From a virus (taxonomy: Duplodnaviria; Heunggongvirae; Uroviricota; Caudoviricetes): a DNA stretch of 4,514 nucleotides. The DNA lies in the IMG/VR virus record IMGVR_UViG_2734482548_000006. One strand, given 5' to 3'. Shown piece after piece: positions 48 through 4,514 of this stretch (within the stretch, counting starts at the first letter, position 1; each line of letters opens with the position of its first letter). The notes beneath the pieces were generated by a model. The model worked only from the letters and a program-made list of their open reading frames with translations, was not told the DNA's origin and made no database searches. A program made the position numbers and the translations under genes.

Positions 48-401
48 TTAAAAAAAGAACAAATGGTAGTGTCCGCTATTGCCAGTACACCTCAATTGCT
101 CTGCGGCTTCGCTCAGAGCTGGCGTATGTTCCCGGCCTACTGATTCACACAGGTAATCAACGAAACCGGACACCAGTTTTCGTTCGCGAGGCGTGATCGC
201 CCCACCGACCGGAGTCCAGTAATCGAAACCCAGTTGCAGGAGTTTGAAAAAACGCTTGTGGAATGCGTAGTTACACACACGCTTAAAGTCTGCGTGTATC
301 CACTCACCTATTTTGATTTGATGCAGAAAATCGCAACTCTCCGGCGTCGCCGGGAGAAGTAATCCGGAAGAGGTTTGTTTGACCAGTTGTATATGTGCCA
401 T
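48..401 (-). CDS. Hypothetical prophage protein, about 117 aa (MAHIQLVKQ...HYHLFFF)
   Basis: Minus-strand ORF with stop TAA at 48-50. ATG at 399-401 is preceded by GGAG about 7 nt upstream; the listed ORF extends to a TTG at 443, which is a less likely start. Follows the upstream 95-aa gene by 38 bp. No family recognised. Confidence 0.55.
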   Translation of the reverse strand: MAHIQLVKQTSSGLLLPATPESCDFLHQIKIGEWIHADFKRVCNYAFHKRFFKLLQLGFDYWTPVGGAITPRERKLVSGFVDYLCESVGREHTPALSEAAEQLRCTGNSGHYHLFFF

Positions 402-439
402 CGGCTTTCTCCGGTGGCACGGTGTTACACAGCAGGAGT

Positions 440-727
440 TCAATCCTGCTCAAGATTGTAGATGAGTTTATTCTTCAGCAAAAGCAGAAAACCAGCCTTA
501 AAACCAATCTCTTTCAAAACCCGTAATGATGTGACAAATTCGTCCTCACGCAAAATAAAACCGTCCGTCAGAAGTCCATTACAAAAATAAAATAACACAG
601 CACCGCTCTTCCTTTGTTGAGATTGCAAACATCTAATGCGGCAATGGCTGACAATCGCTCCATTCTCAACGCGCACAGCATAGAGGCCATTTTCACTAAA
701 AATTTCACGCAATTCTTCGATTTTCAT
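440..727 (-). CDS. Hypothetical prophage protein, 95 aa
   Basis: Minus-strand ORF with ATG at 725-727 and GGAAGG about 9 nt upstream; stop TGA at 440-442. AT-rich coding region. No family recognised. Confidence 0.55.
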   Translation of the reverse strand: MKIEELREIFSENGLYAVRVENGAIVSHCRIRCLQSQQRKSGAVLFYFCNGLLTDGFILREDEFVTSLRVLKEIGFKAGFLLLLKNKLIYNLEQD

Positions 728-844
728 CTTCAGAATCCTTCCAGATAAATAGCTCTCCCCTGTTCGGGGTCCATCCCTCTTCTCCCTGCGCGCTACTTAA
801 GTGAGTCGATTCTATCTGCGAAGGTGCGCGAATCAAATTCACCG

Positions 845-901
845 GAAATAAACAACAAAAAACCCGCCGAAACGCTGAGAGATCACAGCGATGGGCGGGT
901 T
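845..901 (-). terminator. Rho-independent terminator at the 3' end of the hok transcript
   Basis: Plus-strand aacccgcc (861-868) pairs with ggcgggtt (894-901), with an inner cgctg/cagcg stem (873-877 / 886-890). On the minus-strand RNA the stem is followed by a U-rich tract (complement of 845-860 gaaataaacaacaaaaaa). On the plus strand no T-tract follows, so it is unidirectional. Confidence 0.65.
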
Positions 902-907
902 AAGTGC

Positions 908-920
908 GGGTGCGTTGAGG
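908..920 (-). promoter_or_regulatory. fbi-like 3' element of hok mRNA, complementary to the 5' tac element
   Basis: Plus 908-920 gggtgcgttgagg is nearly identical to the reverse complement of plus 1289-1302 (agcctcaagcaccc), so the mRNA 3' region can pair with its 5' end with a 1-nt bulge. This is the fold-back architecture known from hok mRNAs. A 9-bp perfect hairpin (941-949 gggcgggga / 960-968 tccccgccc) lies between the hok stop and this element. Confidence 0.5.
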
Positions 921-976
921 ATGCCTGACACATCAGAGGTGGGCGGGGATGGGATCAGCTCCCCGCCCGGTCACTC

Positions 977-1132
977 TTACTTCCTGGATTCGTAGTCTAC
1001 GAAGACAGCGACCTCCGTCTGGCCGGTTCGGATTCGTACCTCACAGAGGTCTTTCCTCGTTACCAGTGCCGTCACTATGACGGTTAAACAGATGACGATC
1101 AGGGCGATTAACATCGCCTTTTGCTGCTTCAT
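977..1132 (-). CDS. hok: Hok/Gef family type I toxin, 51 aa (MKQQKAMLIALIVICLTVIVTALVTRKDLCEVRIRTGQTEVAVFVDYESRK)
   Basis: ATG at 1130-1132 with AAGGAG 9 nt upstream; stop at 977-979. Single transmembrane helix followed by the conserved RKDLCEV...TGQTEVAVF periplasmic tail, very close to E. coli HokC/HokD as recalled. Confidence 0.9.
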   Translation of the reverse strand: MKQQKAMLIALIVICLTVIVTALVTRKDLCEVRIRTGQTEVAVFVDYESRK

Positions 1133-1189
1133 AGCCTGCTTCTCCTTGCCTTTCGGCATGTAAGAGGCTAACCTACATGTGCAAAGCAT
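977..1189 (-). CDS. mok: Mok-like overlapping reading frame (70 aa), an in-frame N-terminal extension of hok
   Basis: ATG at 1187-1189 opens a frame that runs in-frame through hok (MLCTCRLASYMPKGKEKQA + Hok). Same layout and size as the mokC/hokC pair (69/50 aa) in E. coli. Confidence 0.55.
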   Translation of the reverse strand: MLCTCRLASYMPKGKEKQAMKQQKAMLIALIVICLTVIVTALVTRKDLCEVRIRTGQTEVAVFVDYESRK

Positions 1190-1262
1190 GAAATTGGCCT
1201 CAGATTAATGTTAAGCGTCTTGCCGGACGCGTAATGTTAACTGGGGCTTTTCTCTATCTGCC
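1181..1262 (+). ncRNA. sok: Putative Sok-like antisense RNA (position approximate)
   Basis: Family expectation: Hok loci carry a short antisense RNA opposite the mok leader. A candidate plus-strand promoter is TTGCCT (1146-1151), 17 nt spacer, TAACCT (1169-1174), and there is a small hairpin gcgtc/gacgc (1215-1230). No clean terminator was found, so the boundaries are a guess. Confidence 0.25.
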
Positions 1263-1288
1263 TTTTGGTGTTCATGCCTGAAGCAGAT

Positions 1289-1338
1289 AGCCTCAAGCAC
1301 CCGCAGTCATTCTACTTACCTCGCCAATATGAAATCAA
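1289..1338 (-). promoter_or_regulatory. hok/mok promoter and mRNA 5' tac element
   Basis: On the minus strand: -35 TTGATT (plus 1333-1338), 18 nt spacer, -10 TAGAAT (plus 1309-1314), predicted start near 1302. The transcript would begin GGGUGCUUGAGGCU (complement of 1289-1302), resembling the 5' end of plasmid R1 hok mRNA. Confidence 0.5.
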
Positions 1339-1359
1339 TCAGAAAGGTGCCCCATAAAA

Positions 1360-2046
1360 TCACTCCTTCTCTTCTTTACCGTAGTGGAGTTGACCAATTT
1401 TGATAAGAGGGCGTCCCTGAGATTTGCGGTGTAGATTGGTATCGCGCAGAGAATACACACAGCCACAATATTCCTGCTGATAGAATTTTTCGCGCTTGCT
1501 GATTTCAATCATACGGGACGAGCCGCCCTGCTTGCGCCAGTTATAATCCCAGTACACCATGCCCGGATAATGCGCGACGGCTCGCCGCCCACAGTCGTTA
1601 ACCTGCTGCATATTTTTCCAGCGTGAAATGCCCAGTGAACTGCTGATCACACTGAAACCATTTTCAGCGGCGTACAGCGCTGTCCGCTCAAAACGCATGT
1701 CAAAACACATGGTGCAACGGATCCCTCGTTCGGGCTCCCATTCCATTCCTTTGGCTCGTTCAAACCAGTTGTCTGTGTCGTAATCAGCATCAATAAACGG
1801 CACGCCGTGTTGTTCAGCAAAGCGAATATTCTCATCCTTACGAATTAAATACTCTTTCTGAGGATGAATGTTCGGGTTGTAGAAAAAGATGGTGTAGTCG
1901 ATTCCCGAGGCCTGAAGCGCCTCCATCACCTCACCGGAACATGGAGCACAGCAAGAGTGCAGTAGTAGTTTGTTTGCCCCGTTTGGGAGCTCCAATTTGG
2001 GCCGTTTGAAATCAGCAACTGTCATAAATATGTTTATTGGGGTCAT
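1360..2046 (-). CDS. queH: QueH-like protein (DUF208 family, epoxyqueuosine reductase homolog), 228 aa
   Basis: ORF with ATG at 2044-2046 (alternative ATG at 2025) and stop TGA at 1360-1362. Carries the motifs I associate with DUF208/QueH: [12 protein letters not shown] near the N-terminus, [15 protein letters not shown] and EYCGCVYS. No strong SD at either start. Confidence 0.75.
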
Positions 2047-2193
2047 AAAAATATCAAAGAGTGTAGCATTAGAACGGGGCTATCGGAAACAGATGTGTGA
2101 CTGCTCCCCGCCCTTTCGGGTGGTCTCCTGATGATTTGAGGGTGCAGAAATCCCTCCGGTTAAGGATTAAATTTTTAACAGTGCTAAATTTAA

Positions 2194-2550
2194 TTATTCA
2201 GTTCTGGATTTTGTCGCCCTGCGTATCCGCGCTTTCGCGTTACGCTCAATCTGTATCAGCTTTTCTATATTTCTCCGCCTTTCCTGTTCCTCCTGGCGCA
2301 ATAGCCTTACATCATCTGCCAGTCTGGTTTCTCTTTTTGCCACAGAGAGCATCCAGTCAAACGGCTCCACAACCGCACCGCAGATTTTACAGCGGACCTG
2401 ACGCTCTTTTTCGTCAACCCGTACAGAGGCGTGATGGCAATATGGTCTTTCCGATGGCTCATAAAGAAAATTAACCTGATTACGAGGGTCATCCTCTTTT
2501 ACCGGAAATAAAACGATATTGCTTAACTCATCTTCTGGTTTTATTTCCAT
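2194..2550 (-). CDS. Hypothetical small protein, 118 aa: Cys/His-rich Zn-ribbon-like segment followed by a charged coiled-coil-like tail
   Basis: ATG at 2548-2550 is preceded by AAGGAGAGGAGC. The ORF is open further to an ATG at 2605-2607, which abuts the upstream stop as TGAATG, so the start is ambiguous. Contains PYCHHASVRV...RCKICG, then RLLRQEEQERRRNIEKLIQIERNAKARIRR. Confidence 0.7.
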   Translation of the reverse strand: MEIKPEDELSNIVLFPVKEDDPRNQVNFLYEPSERPYCHHASVRVDEKERQVRCKICGAVVEPFDWMLSVAKRETRLADDVRLLRQEEQERRRNIEKLIQIERNAKARIRRATKSRTE

Positions 2551-2607
2551 GCTCCTCTCCTTTGATGCGAATGCCAGCGGTAATTGAAGCCTGATAGCTA
2601 ATTTCAT

Positions 2608-3030
2608 TCACAGTATCGCCTCCTGAAAATTACCCTGATAGAAAGCCAGTACACGCTGCATAGCTTCGCTCTTCCGGCACTCGCGACAGATTATATTCAG
2701 GCGCCTGTCGTAGCGGCGTATTTCTCCGTCAGGTAATGACCAGATAAGGTCCGGATCAACAACAACCGGTTTCCTCACCTTTACTCTCGAGAGTTTTTTG
2801 CGGGCGCTTTGCCAGTCCTTGCGAGCCTGTTCAGACGGGAATAAGCCGTAGCCAGAATTATATACATCACCACTTGCGACCAGTTCTATGCATAAGCGAC
2901 CGACAGACGCACGACTGATACCTGTTTCATCTGACAACTGCCGAATCGTGACCCGACCGTCCTGATGCACGAGTTCCACAATTCGCGTCTTCAGTTCTTC
3001 CCGCTGTTCGGGAGTAAAAGGTTTCGCCAT
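2608..3030 (-). CDS. ren: Ren-like protein, 140 aa, with predicted HTH/winged-helix N-terminal region
   Basis: ATG at 3028-3030 with AGGAGG 4 nt upstream; stop TGA at 2608-2610. C-terminus NIICRECRKSEAMQRVLAFY resembles lambda Ren (NLVFKECRQSAAMKRVLAVY, recalled from memory). Sits immediately after the P-like gene, as ren does in lambda. Confidence 0.7.
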   Translation of the reverse strand: MAKPFTPEQREELKTRIVELVHQDGRVTIRQLSDETGISRASVGRLCIELVASGDVYNSGYGLFPSEQARKDWQSARKKLSRVKVRKPVVVDPDLIWSLPDGEIRRYDRRLNIICRECRKSEAMQRVLAFYQGNFQEAIL

Positions 3031-3044
3031 AAATCCTCCTGAAA

Positions 3045-3727
3045 CTACTTAACAACCCTCGAATGGCTAACATTCGGACGCCAGCTCTCCCAGTTAAAAT
3101 TCACCCAGCGCCCGNNNNNNNNNNNNNNNNNNNNNNNNNNNNNNNNNNNNNNNNNNNNNNNNNNNNNNNNNNNNNNNNNNNNNNNNNNNNNNNNNNNNNN
3201 NNNNNNNNNNNNNNNNNNNNNNNNNNNNNNNNNNNNNNNNNNNNNNNNNNNNNNNNNNNNNNNNNNNNNNNNNNNNNNNNNNNNNNNNNNNNNNNNNNNN
3301 NNNNNNNNNNNNNNNNNNNNNNNNNNNNNNNNNNNNNNNNNNNNNNNNNNNNNNNNNNNNNNNNGATAGCTGCCGCTAAGTGATTCTTCCCGGTACCAGG
3401 TTTTCCGCTGAACGCAAAATTTGTACACCCGGTCATCAGTTCATCGGCGATGGATTTCGCCTGGCTTAACGCGTATCGCTGGCCGTCGTTCTGCACCTGG
3501 TAATTCGCAAACGAGCATTTACGGTGCAACGGCTGGATGCCTGAGCGATTCAGAATTTTTTCCACCCGCAACTGGCGATTCAGGCGGTTGATCTCCTCGC
3601 TACGTTTCTGGCCTTCAGCAAGTTGCCACTCGCGCCACTCCGCTACCGTTCTGAATGGGGCGGTTACATGTGGCGGGGTCAGTCGGCGGATGCGTTCCAG
3701 AACGCCGCCTGTCGCAATATTTTTCAT
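3045..3727 (-). CDS. DnaC-like replicative helicase loader (lambda P functional analog), interrupted by an assembly gap
   Basis: ATG at 3725-3727. The N-terminal 121 aa align closely with E. coli DnaC (MKNI..., SGIQPLHRKCSFANY, Walker A GKPGTGKNHLAAAI). After the N-run, the C-terminus WVNFNWESWRP...VVK with stop at 3045-3047 matches the DnaC C-terminus (WVIFNWDSYRSRV). The frame does not carry across the 250-N gap, so the gap length is nominal. Confidence 0.85.
3115..3364. other. Assembly/scaffold gap (250 N)
   Basis: Continuous run of N from 3115 to 3364, inside the DnaC-like gene. Confidence 0.99.
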
Positions 3728-3733
3728 GGTCCG

Positions 3734-4410
3734 TTACCCCCTGAAGCCTGGCGGGATCGCACTGTCCGGCAACGAGACGGTGTTAACCTGTCGGAGCAAC
3801 GTCTCAGGCCGAACACCTTTCGGCGCGAACAGGCCCTGGTATTCATTGGCGATGCTGTGTCGAATCACCTGCTCAGGTGTAAAACCCTGCTGACGGAATT
3901 TTTCCAGTTCCCGTATCGCCCCGTTAGCGCCCTGCTCCGTTCGAATCGGTTTTCGCAATGCCTGTCTGAACCGGACCCACTCATGCCAGAGTGTTTCCGG
4001 CAACCAATCGGGCAGCTCAATAGCCTCCGGCTCGAATTTTTTAGACGCTCGTTTTTGGCGAGGGGGAGATCAGTATTTAGATCTTCCTCTTCCTCTTCCT
4101 CTGGTAACGCTTTTTGATCCGTTTGTGTAACGCTGGCAGCGTTACCTTTTCGTTTCAGTTCGCGTATTTTTGTTACTCGCTCGTTTGTAACCGCCCGTTT
4201 TTTTTAGAGCTTTTTCCGTTATGACGTTCAAAGTTAGGTAGAGAAAGCCCTCCGTCATTTTCGACCAGCCATCCAACCTGAATTAACGCATCAGCAAAAC
4301 CAGACATAAAAGTGATGCGATCTATTGCACTTTTTGTAACGCCGCGAGCGTTACAATCTGCATTACCGTCTATCATTTGTTGATCCGCCCATGCCCAGAA
4401 GCGAATAACC
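3734..4410 (-). pseudogene. Phage replication initiator with DnaT-like C-terminal domain (lambda O functional analog): 5'-truncated by IS and split across three frames
   Basis: The C-terminal frame (4003-3734) ends NTVSLPDSAIPPGFRG, matching the E. coli DnaT C-terminus (NTVSEPDSQIPPGFRG, recalled), and stops 7 nt before the DnaC-like start, as in dnaT-dnaC. The N-terminal piece (frame of ORF 4173..4436) hits a stop at 4173. A third frame is open and protein-like between about 4203 and 4040 (KKRAVTNERVTKIRELKRKGNAASVTQTDQKALPEEEEEEDLNTDLPLAKNERLK). Restoring one base in the A8 run (plus T8 at 4198-4205) and one in a run at about 4037-4066 joins all three. Confidence 0.6.
4082..4102. repeat. 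Hexanucleotide tandem repeat (TCTTCC)x3.5, encoding an EEEEEE acidic linker in the replication protein
   Basis: Plus 4082-4102 is tcttcc tcttcc tcttcc tct; in the middle minus-strand frame it reads P-E-E-E-E-E-E-D. Confidence 0.5.
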
Positions 4411-4514
4411 TGAGGTAGCCTGAGTTTAACGGACACTCCTTCCTGAAATAGAATGGCATCAGAAGGAGCTAATAATGAGCAGAAAAACCCAACGTTACTC
4501 TAAAGAGTTCAAAG
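4411..4514 (+). mobile_element. Left end of an IS3-family insertion sequence (possibly IS600-like), continuing beyond the window
   Basis: Plus 4411 begins TGAGGTAGCCTGAGTTTAACGGACAC. This shares the terminal TGA and the GGACAC at positions 21-26 with the IS3 left inverted repeat as recalled. An SD (AGGAG, 4464-4468) and the ATG at 4475 lie about 65 bp inside the end, the usual position of orfA in IS3-family elements. Confidence 0.6.
4475..4514 (+). CDS. IS3-family transposase OrfA, N-terminal fragment (MSRKTQRYSKEFK...)
   Basis: ATG at 4475 with AGGAG 6 nt upstream. The translation MSRKTQRYSKEFK has the YS.EFK motif typical of IS3-family OrfA HTH proteins. Truncated by the window edge. Confidence 0.65.
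   Translation, partial: MSRKTQRYSKEFK

Follow-up and report, generated by a model that had tools for sequence, protein, structure and literature searches.

The locus described here lies within a 4,514-nucleotide (nt) stretch of Caudoviricetes DNA (IMG/VR record IMGVR_UViG_2734482548_000006), hereafter the window, to whose positions all coordinates refer. On its minus strand are two reading frames that share a stop codon: hok, encoding a 51-amino acid (aa) toxin (977..1132; MKQQKAMLIALIVICLTVIVTALVTRKDLCEVRIRTGQTEVAVFVDYESRK) with a Shine-Dalgarno (SD) sequence GGAG at 1145-1142, and mok (977..1189), a 70-aa reading frame that extends hok in frame at its N-terminus and has its own SD, GAGG, at 1198..1201, 8 nt before the mok AUG. 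Both frames had been proposed in a first-pass annotation made from the sequence alone, and both were recovered in the open reading frame (ORF) list and through the Pfam family HOK_GEF (PF01848), of which the 70-aa product matched all 42 model positions with 79.9 bits (E = 1e-22; cut-off 22 bits). The 51-aa ORF has a grand average of hydropathy (GRAVY) of +0.52. Together with the RNA elements described below, these frames very probably make up a hok/mok/sok type I toxin-antitoxin (TA) cassette of the hokW/hokD subgroup (857-1338, minus strand) that is complete and apparently functional and that sits in the nin region of what remains of a lambdoid (Rac-like) prophage in a Shigella/Escherichia coli genome. 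Every defining feature of the hok/sok family that can be tested from sequence was found at this locus.

An Rfam scan of the entire window yielded one match only, to RF01794 (“sok”; minus strand, 1302..1127), with a score of 117 bits (E = 3.9e-27; gathering score 59) and with model positions 1-157 of 157 covered. The match begins exactly at GGGUGCUUGAGG and finishes at the hok AUG. Although RF01794 is titled “sok antitoxin”, the strand matched at 1127-1302 (minus) is that of the hok mRNA, running from its 5' end to the hok AUG, and the model therefore represents the hok leader, which includes the complement of Sok, folded in the open (tac/ucb) way, not the antisense strand.

The hok/mok mRNA promoter was placed at 1309..1338 (minus strand), with a -35 hexamer TTGATT (1338-1333), an 18-nt spacer and a -10 hexamer TAGAAT (1314-1309). 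This promoter had been proposed earlier and was called by a consensus scan, which returned 2 sites in an 800-nt region against 0.7 expected. The -10 hexamer stands six bases before G1302, and in 13/13 homologues inspected, from several genera, a -10-like hexamer (TAGAAT, TACAAT, TATAAT, TACTAT and others) was found 6-7 nt ahead of the motif GGG(U/C)GC. This conserved spacing supports 1302 as the start of the transcript, and we infer that transcription begins at G1302, the first base of GGGUGCUUGAGG. With its 5' end taken from the start of the RF01794 match and its 3' end from the U-run of the terminator, the predicted full-length hok mRNA is ~446 nt long (857..1302, minus strand). Its minimum free energy (MFE) is -189.6 kcal/mol, compared to -137.9 +/- 6.2 kcal/mol for dinucleotide shuffles (z = -8.4), and 0/100 shuffles folded as well.

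At the 3' end of this transcript, the intrinsic terminator that had been annotated is present (857..901, minus strand; -22.8 kcal/mol), with an 8-bp stem (901-894/868-861) followed by U6 and a T-rich tail, but it is not the simple hairpin implied. Its loop holds an insertion of ~24 nt (CAUCGCUGUGAUCUCUCAGCGUU, 869-893, minus strand) that forms a 5-bp hairpin of its own (890-886/877-873), whereas three close relatives (L005, L006 and L014) have an identical stem closed by a simple UUCG loop without the insertion. A simple terminator scan of positions 700-1500 called none because this loop is long and structured, not because the terminator is missing. Between the stop codon and the terminator, the 3' untranslated region (UTR) contains the GC-rich hairpin noted previously (941..968, minus strand), with 9 bp (968-960/949-941, GGGCGGGGA/UCCCCGCCC), a 10-nt loop and an energy of -20.9 kcal/mol. 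Its core G-C pairs are kept in all homologues aligned, and it is a probable block to 3' exonucleases. Just beyond the terminator, at 809-836 (minus strand), is a second promoter-like site with both hexamers of the hok promoter (TTGATT, 16 nt, TAGAAT). It precedes a 95-aa ORF (440-727, minus strand) without a Pfam or NCBIfam match.

The transcript also contains the long-range pairing that is characteristic of hok mRNAs. Its first bases, GGGUGCUUGAGG at 1291..1302 (minus strand), correspond to the translational activator (tac) element, and CCUCAACGCACCC at 908..920 (minus strand) corresponds to the fold-back inhibitory (fbi) element. The first-pass annotation had noted that the predicted 5' end is complementary, with one bulge, to 908-920; in the MFE fold, GGGUGC (1302-1297) is paired with GCACCC (913-908) and UUGAGG (1296-1291) with CCUCAA (920-915), leaving C914 bulged, with pair probabilities of 0.97-1.0. 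Folding of the complete predicted transcript thus gave a stable 5'/3' (tac/fbi) pairing with a probability of ~1, and the proposal of a fold-back like that of the hok family is backed both by this fold and by compensatory changes in relatives. The tac/fbi duplex alone has an energy of -21.5 kcal/mol. In the same fold of the full-length RNA, the mok AUG is paired with 926-921, and the mok SD, which is invariant in 29 homologues, is paired as well.

In order to compare this pairing among relatives, a Hok-peptide scan of one genome per species was used, which gave 47 loci from Escherichia, Shigella, Kluyvera, Citrobacter, Photorhabdus, Pantoea, Erwinia and others. For the 40 loci in which the 5' motif and the Hok ORF could be placed, the 5' 14-mer was searched against the 220 nt downstream of the stop codon, and its best partner lay 45-56 nt past the stop codon in 36/40. 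The sequence of the partner tracks that of the 5' end, as GGGUGC/GCACCC in the Escherichia type and GGGCGC/GCGCCC in Photorhabdus and Pantoea, and as GAGG/CCUC versus GAGA/UCUC. When the fold of the window was projected onto an alignment of 29 transcripts from Escherichia, Kluyvera, Photorhabdus, Erwinia and Pantoea (alignment A1), 80.8% of the alignment cells were paired, compared to 37-43% when the partners were slid by 1-3 columns, and double changes were observed at 50 pairs. At tac position 4, the combination with fbi is U-A in 17 homologues, C-G in 9 and U-G in 3, with 0 unpaired. The UUGAGG half of tac/fbi (pairs 7-12) appears poorly paired in this alignment because the Photorhabdus-type loci lack the bulged C, which shifts the register; per-sequence duplex prediction indicates that the tac/fbi pairing is retained in these loci. 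The conserved position and the covariation among homologues argue strongly for the tac/fbi pairing.

The 5' end of hok mRNA has been described as having three partners: a metastable hairpin in the nascent transcript, fbi in the closed full-length RNA, in which the mok SD is held by ucb, and ucb itself in the 3'-processed RNA, in which the mok SD pairs with the downstream complementary box (dcb) and which is translatable and accessible to Sok (PMC9841398). Sequences corresponding to all three were found here. In a fold of the first 41 nt (-17.1 kcal/mol), tac pairs with 1274..1284 (minus strand), joining transcript positions 3-13 to 19-29 (window 1300-1290 with 1284-1274), and this metastable hairpin is 96.6% paired in the 29 homologues. 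Position 4 of tac is combined with its metastable partner as U-A in 18 of them, C-G in 9 and U-G in 2. This position thus varies with both of its partners, which is the “coupled covariation” described for the hok/sok family.

The ucb or anti-SD box, AAGCCCC, is at 1243..1249 (minus strand), where it would hold the mok SD as long as the RNA is closed and pair with tac once the RNA is open. In the full-length MFE fold, the mok SD region GAGG (1201-1198) pairs with the GCCCCAG box at 1247-1241, and the 3' part of ucb (1247-1245, on to 1243-1241) is paired with 1199-1197 and 1203-1201, across the mok SD. The tac/ucb stem is part of the Rfam consensus and is 99.5% paired in the alignment, without variation. 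The dcb, AGCCUC at 1164..1169 (minus strand), is nearly invariant in the alignment and belongs to the third hairpin of the Rfam consensus; in the open form, the Sok-target hairpin would join it to the mok SD region. With the full-length RNA, the closed fold (-189.6 kcal/mol) is favoured over a fold in which tac/ucb is enforced (-177.2 kcal/mol) by 12.4 kcal/mol, and tac/fbi stabilises the closed form by 12-14 kcal/mol. When the RNA is cut at 921, so that fbi and the terminator are gone, the corresponding values are -150.1 and -148.2 kcal/mol, a gap of 1.9 kcal/mol, and the mok SD is unpaired in the enforced tac/ucb form. In these folding models, the lock of the closed form depends on fbi.

The first-pass annotation had listed no antisense gene. 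By projection from the annotated sokW of phage 933W, with which the locus is collinear, a Sok antisense RNA gene of ~71 nt can be placed at about 1181..1251 on the plus strand, so that Sok spans both the mok SD and the mok AUG. Folded from G1181, this RNA forms a single long hairpin (-29 kcal/mol), preceded by ~9 nt of unpaired 5' leader and ending in a U-tail. Homology, together with the published mutant primers, places its promoter at 1146..1174 (plus strand), with a -35 hexamer TTGCCT (1146-1151), a 17-nt spacer and a -10 hexamer TAACCT (1169-1174). The promoter region is identical in 933W, and TAACCT is exactly the hexamer altered by primer YO-421 in the sokW “pro-less” mutant (PMC8621323). 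The consensus promoter scan did not call this promoter because TAACCT fits only 3/6 consensus positions. The body of the Sok hairpin is identical to that of sokW, whereas ~7 of the first 16 leader nt differ. Separately, the genome of S. flexneri SFBU1023 contains three hok/sok copies (L004, L009 and L011) in which the Sok hairpin bodies are nearly identical and the 5' recognition leaders differ (GCAAAGCAUGAAAUUGG, GUUCAGCAUGGAUUGAG and UGAGACAUAGAUUGGG), a sign that each Sok may recognise its own mRNA specifically.

The nearest characterised system is hokW-mokW-sokW of the Shiga-toxin (Stx) phages (933W/Sakai prophage Sp5, AF125520; Takada et al. 2021, PMC8621323), with a nucleotide identity of 92% over the transcript. 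HokW is also 51 aa long and one residue apart (VDYESRK in the present toxin, VDYESEK in HokW), the annotated mokW of 933W has the same in-frame layout and 70-aa length as the present mok, and sokW is 71 nt, as here. The tac, fbi, Sok hairpin and Sok -10 sequences are identical in the two loci. They differ in the hok -35 region and the terminator, which are unrelated (homology is confined to query positions 24-448), in the GC hairpin, which is longer here, in the Sok leader together with the matching mok start region, and in their position on the phage genome, which is the nin region beside QueH here and near the right end (attR) in 933W. Experimentally, HokW halts growth and SokW counteracts it, with contributions from RNase III and Hfq, and HokW localises to the inner membrane (PMC8621323). 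In Sp5, SokW is lost on treatment with mitomycin C and HokW is induced in a RecA-dependent manner; hokW-sokW doubles phage release, the yield being halved without the locus, and smaller bands hint at 3' processing of hokW (PMC8621323). As HokW is one residue different, it provides the precedent from which membrane toxicity and neutralisation by Sok would be expected for the present allele.

The identical locus in RefSeq has its toxin coding sequence (CDS) annotated as hokD (WP_014532198.1), without mok, Sok or any RNA element. No above-threshold equivalog was obtained from NCBIfam, in which the Hok subfamily scored 55 bits against a curated cut-off of 73, and the name hokD given by PGAP therefore rests on protein identity rather than on that model. 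Within this hokD (relF) group, identical 501-nt copies occur in E. coli FDAARGOS_943 and FDAARGOS_944 and ~91% copies in most E. coli. The relatives have the C-terminus TAYEPEE, in contrast to VDYESRK here. The hokD/relF copy of K-12, in prophage Qin, is not known to carry the upstream mok/sok/tac part, which the present copy has in full.

Every named RNA element of hok/sok (parB) of plasmid R1 was found here at an equivalent position, the Rfam model built on the hok/sok family was matched over its full length, and the three-partner behaviour of the R1 hok 5' end was reproduced. The R1 locus is plasmid-borne and has a hok transcript of ~398 nt, whereas the present locus is chromosomal and prophage-borne with a predicted transcript of ~446 nt. 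The Sok hairpin is ~18 nt longer here than in other subgroups (columns 72-89 of the alignment). Identity of the toxin to R1 Hok is ~44%, a figure reported for HokW (PMC8621323). For R1, slow 3' exonucleolytic activation, a stable hok mRNA versus an unstable Sok, and cleavage of the duplex by RNase III have been reported (PMC9841398).

In the mechanism proposed for the present locus, the sequence and folding steps are those computed here, and the remainder is taken from hok/sok of R1 and from hokW-sokW. A stable ~446-nt mRNA would be made from the promoter at 1338-1309, and during its synthesis the 5' end (tac) would form the local hairpin. In the finished transcript, tac would pair with fbi near the 3' end to give the closed form, in which the mok SD is held by ucb and from which both ribosomes and Sok would be excluded. 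Slow 3' trimming, perhaps pausing at the GC hairpin, would strip the terminator and fbi, after which tac could move to ucb, freeing the mok SD and allowing the Sok-target hairpin to form. For as long as the DNA remains, Sok, an unstable 71-nt RNA from the opposite strand, would bind the Sok-target region and the duplex would be degraded. If Sok were no longer made, because the element is lost, the prophage induced or transcription shut off, mok would be translated with hok coupled to it, and the 51-aa Hok would enter the inner membrane and kill or lyse the cell. The toxicity, 3' processing and biological role given here to the present copy are those of its homologues and would carry over by analogy.

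The prophage setting that had been proposed is borne out by E. coli FDAARGOS_943, in which a 99.8%-identical stretch sits within a lambdoid prophage. The gene order there is cI/Cro-like, YdaT, replication protein, YdaV, DUF977, QueH, hokD, DUF1367, DUF1364, DUF1133, tRNAs, holin and lysozyme, so that the locus is flanked by Rac-like replication genes on one side and by DUF1367/DUF1364/DUF1133-holin-lysozyme genes on the other. Positions 95-3114 of the window are 99.8% identical to this genome and positions 3365-4411 are 98.2% identical, and Pfam confirmed QueH, DUF1367 and DUF977 in the window. Over 1353 nt around the locus, S. flexneri SFBU1023 and E. coli ECMA0423 each differ at 3 positions, and the window is therefore assigned to a Shigella-like genome. 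The match to the intact FDAARGOS_943 prophage ends at 95 and 4411, and the window has termini of the insertion sequence (IS) IS600 at both ends: a right end at 1-97, and a left inverted repeat with the start of orfA (MSRKTQRYSKEFK) at 4412-4514. The two IS600 ends share an orientation, enclose a 4.3-kb prophage fragment, and truncate the DUF1367 gene (48-443, minus strand) and a replication-gene ORF (4173-4436, minus strand). The locus itself is uninterrupted, as had been claimed, since the closest IS600 ends, at 97 and 4412, are both outside it.

The neighbouring QueH epoxyqueuosine reductase gene (1360-2046, minus strand; PF02677, 220 bits), a prophage-borne tRNA-modification gene of the lambdoid nin region, stops 22 nt upstream of the hok -35 hexamer. 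Further along, 250 N at 3115-3364 mask the middle of a ydaV/dnaC-like ATPase gene (3101-3727, minus strand). The 501-nt query is 100% identical in just 2/5426 complete E. coli genomes, those of FDAARGOS_943 and FDAARGOS_944. Matches of 90-95% identity were found in 3814 records, and some match in 4713/5426, with a median of two places per genome. In addition, 79 phage records matched, including 933W, VT2-Sakai and many Stx phages at 92%, with annotated mokW/hokW/sokW. Hok matches of 89-100% identity on tiny contigs assigned to unrelated genera (Acinetobacter idrijaensis, L015, 275 bp; Xanthomonas pisi, L020, 431 bp) look like enterobacterial contamination of the assemblies.

Several results weigh against reading this locus as an intact and functional cassette. 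Taken in isolation, the tac/fbi duplex exceeds chance only moderately: 36/2000 dinucleotide shuffles of the 120-nt 3' UTR (1.8%) paired at least as well with the G-rich 5' end. As tac/ucb is invariant, covariation is uninformative for this stem, and unconstrained folding of 3'-truncated RNAs never produced the tac/ucb open form but instead the local 5' hairpin, so that thermodynamics does not itself show the open form. The Sok -10 hexamer is a poor match to consensus, the terminator insertion is unusual and might affect termination or 3' processing, and the prophage is broken by IS600 although hok/sok is intact, so that hok/sok may no longer serve in phage release. The shuffling result is the one point that could favour a chance origin of the fold-back pairing and the ORF in GC-rich prophage DNA, an explanation that we consider exceedingly improbable; it is refuted by the Rfam match (E = 4e-27), the Pfam match (E = 1e-22), the fold z of -8.4, and compensatory changes at a conserved position across many genera.

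A decayed pseudolocus was also rejected, as the elements are uninterrupted and match the conserved columns of the homologues. A subtler proposal is that the locus is structurally intact and functionally silent, a decaying relic comparable to the hok loci on the E. coli K-12 chromosome and carried passively in an IS-riddled prophage remnant. Its appeal lies in the two IS600 copies that bracket and truncate the segment, the loop insertion that is not seen in relatives, and the imperfect hexamers of the hok -35 (TTGATT) and the Sok -10; Pedersen and Gerdes are also said to have found, in 1999, that most K-12 chromosomal hok copies are inactive. Yet the toxin or the activating elements normally decay first, and here every element is free of IS, frameshift and stop. 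The conserved columns of 29 homologues are matched throughout, by the Hok ORF and the mok SD, by tac, ucb, dcb and fbi, and by the Sok promoter, and the Sok -10 is identical to that of the functional sokW. A silent relic is therefore considered unlikely. A different proposal keeps the mechanism unchanged and has the locus help to lyse the host and release phage once the prophage is induced, as with Sp5 hokW-sokW, rather than act in post-segregational stabilisation or abortive infection. We regard this as possible and somewhat doubtful: the 92% identity to hokW-sokW and the Sp5 precedent, with HokW induction dependent on mitomycin C and RecA and yield halved without the locus (PMC8621323), speak for it, but the present copy lies in a different module, in the nin region by QueH rather than near the right end, has a Sok 5' leader unlike that of sokW, and belongs to a prophage cut on both sides by IS600 that is probably not inducible to particles. 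Given this disruption, a role in phage release is less likely here than in Sp5. For the intact cassette that we favour, the candidate roles would be to stabilise the element, to aid lysis on induction or to exclude other phages.

The locus is of a known kind and adds no new insight into the working of hok/sok cassettes. RefSeq already lists the exact sequence as hokD, and the 92%-identical hokW-sokW has been characterised experimentally (PMC8621323). It is an ordinary intact copy, nearest to hokW-sokW of the Stx phages, in a degraded lambdoid prophage, and its departures from relatives (the Sok leader compared to sokW, the longer GC hairpin, the ~24-nt terminator insertion, the nin position on the QueH side and the flanking IS600) are all minor. 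Its importance beyond correct annotation is slight, with mok, Sok, tac, ucb, dcb and fbi placeable to the base. One further idea, speculative and improbable on present evidence, is that the three cassettes of the SFBU1023 type, with the same Sok hairpin body and differing leaders, are mutually insulated, and that the present one acts as a private addiction module guarding the IS600-bracketed 4.3-kb fragment (QueH, hok/sok and replication-gene remnants) against being deleted when the flanking IS600 copies recombine; if true, this would give a concrete example of a specific island being preserved by a type I TA system during IS-driven genome reduction. The terminator insertion could serve to probe the influence of 3'-end structure on processing, and the three copies in one Shigella genome offer a possible use in studying Sok-leader specificity. 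As an intact copy, the present locus may be used as a natural comparison for the decayed copies of K-12.

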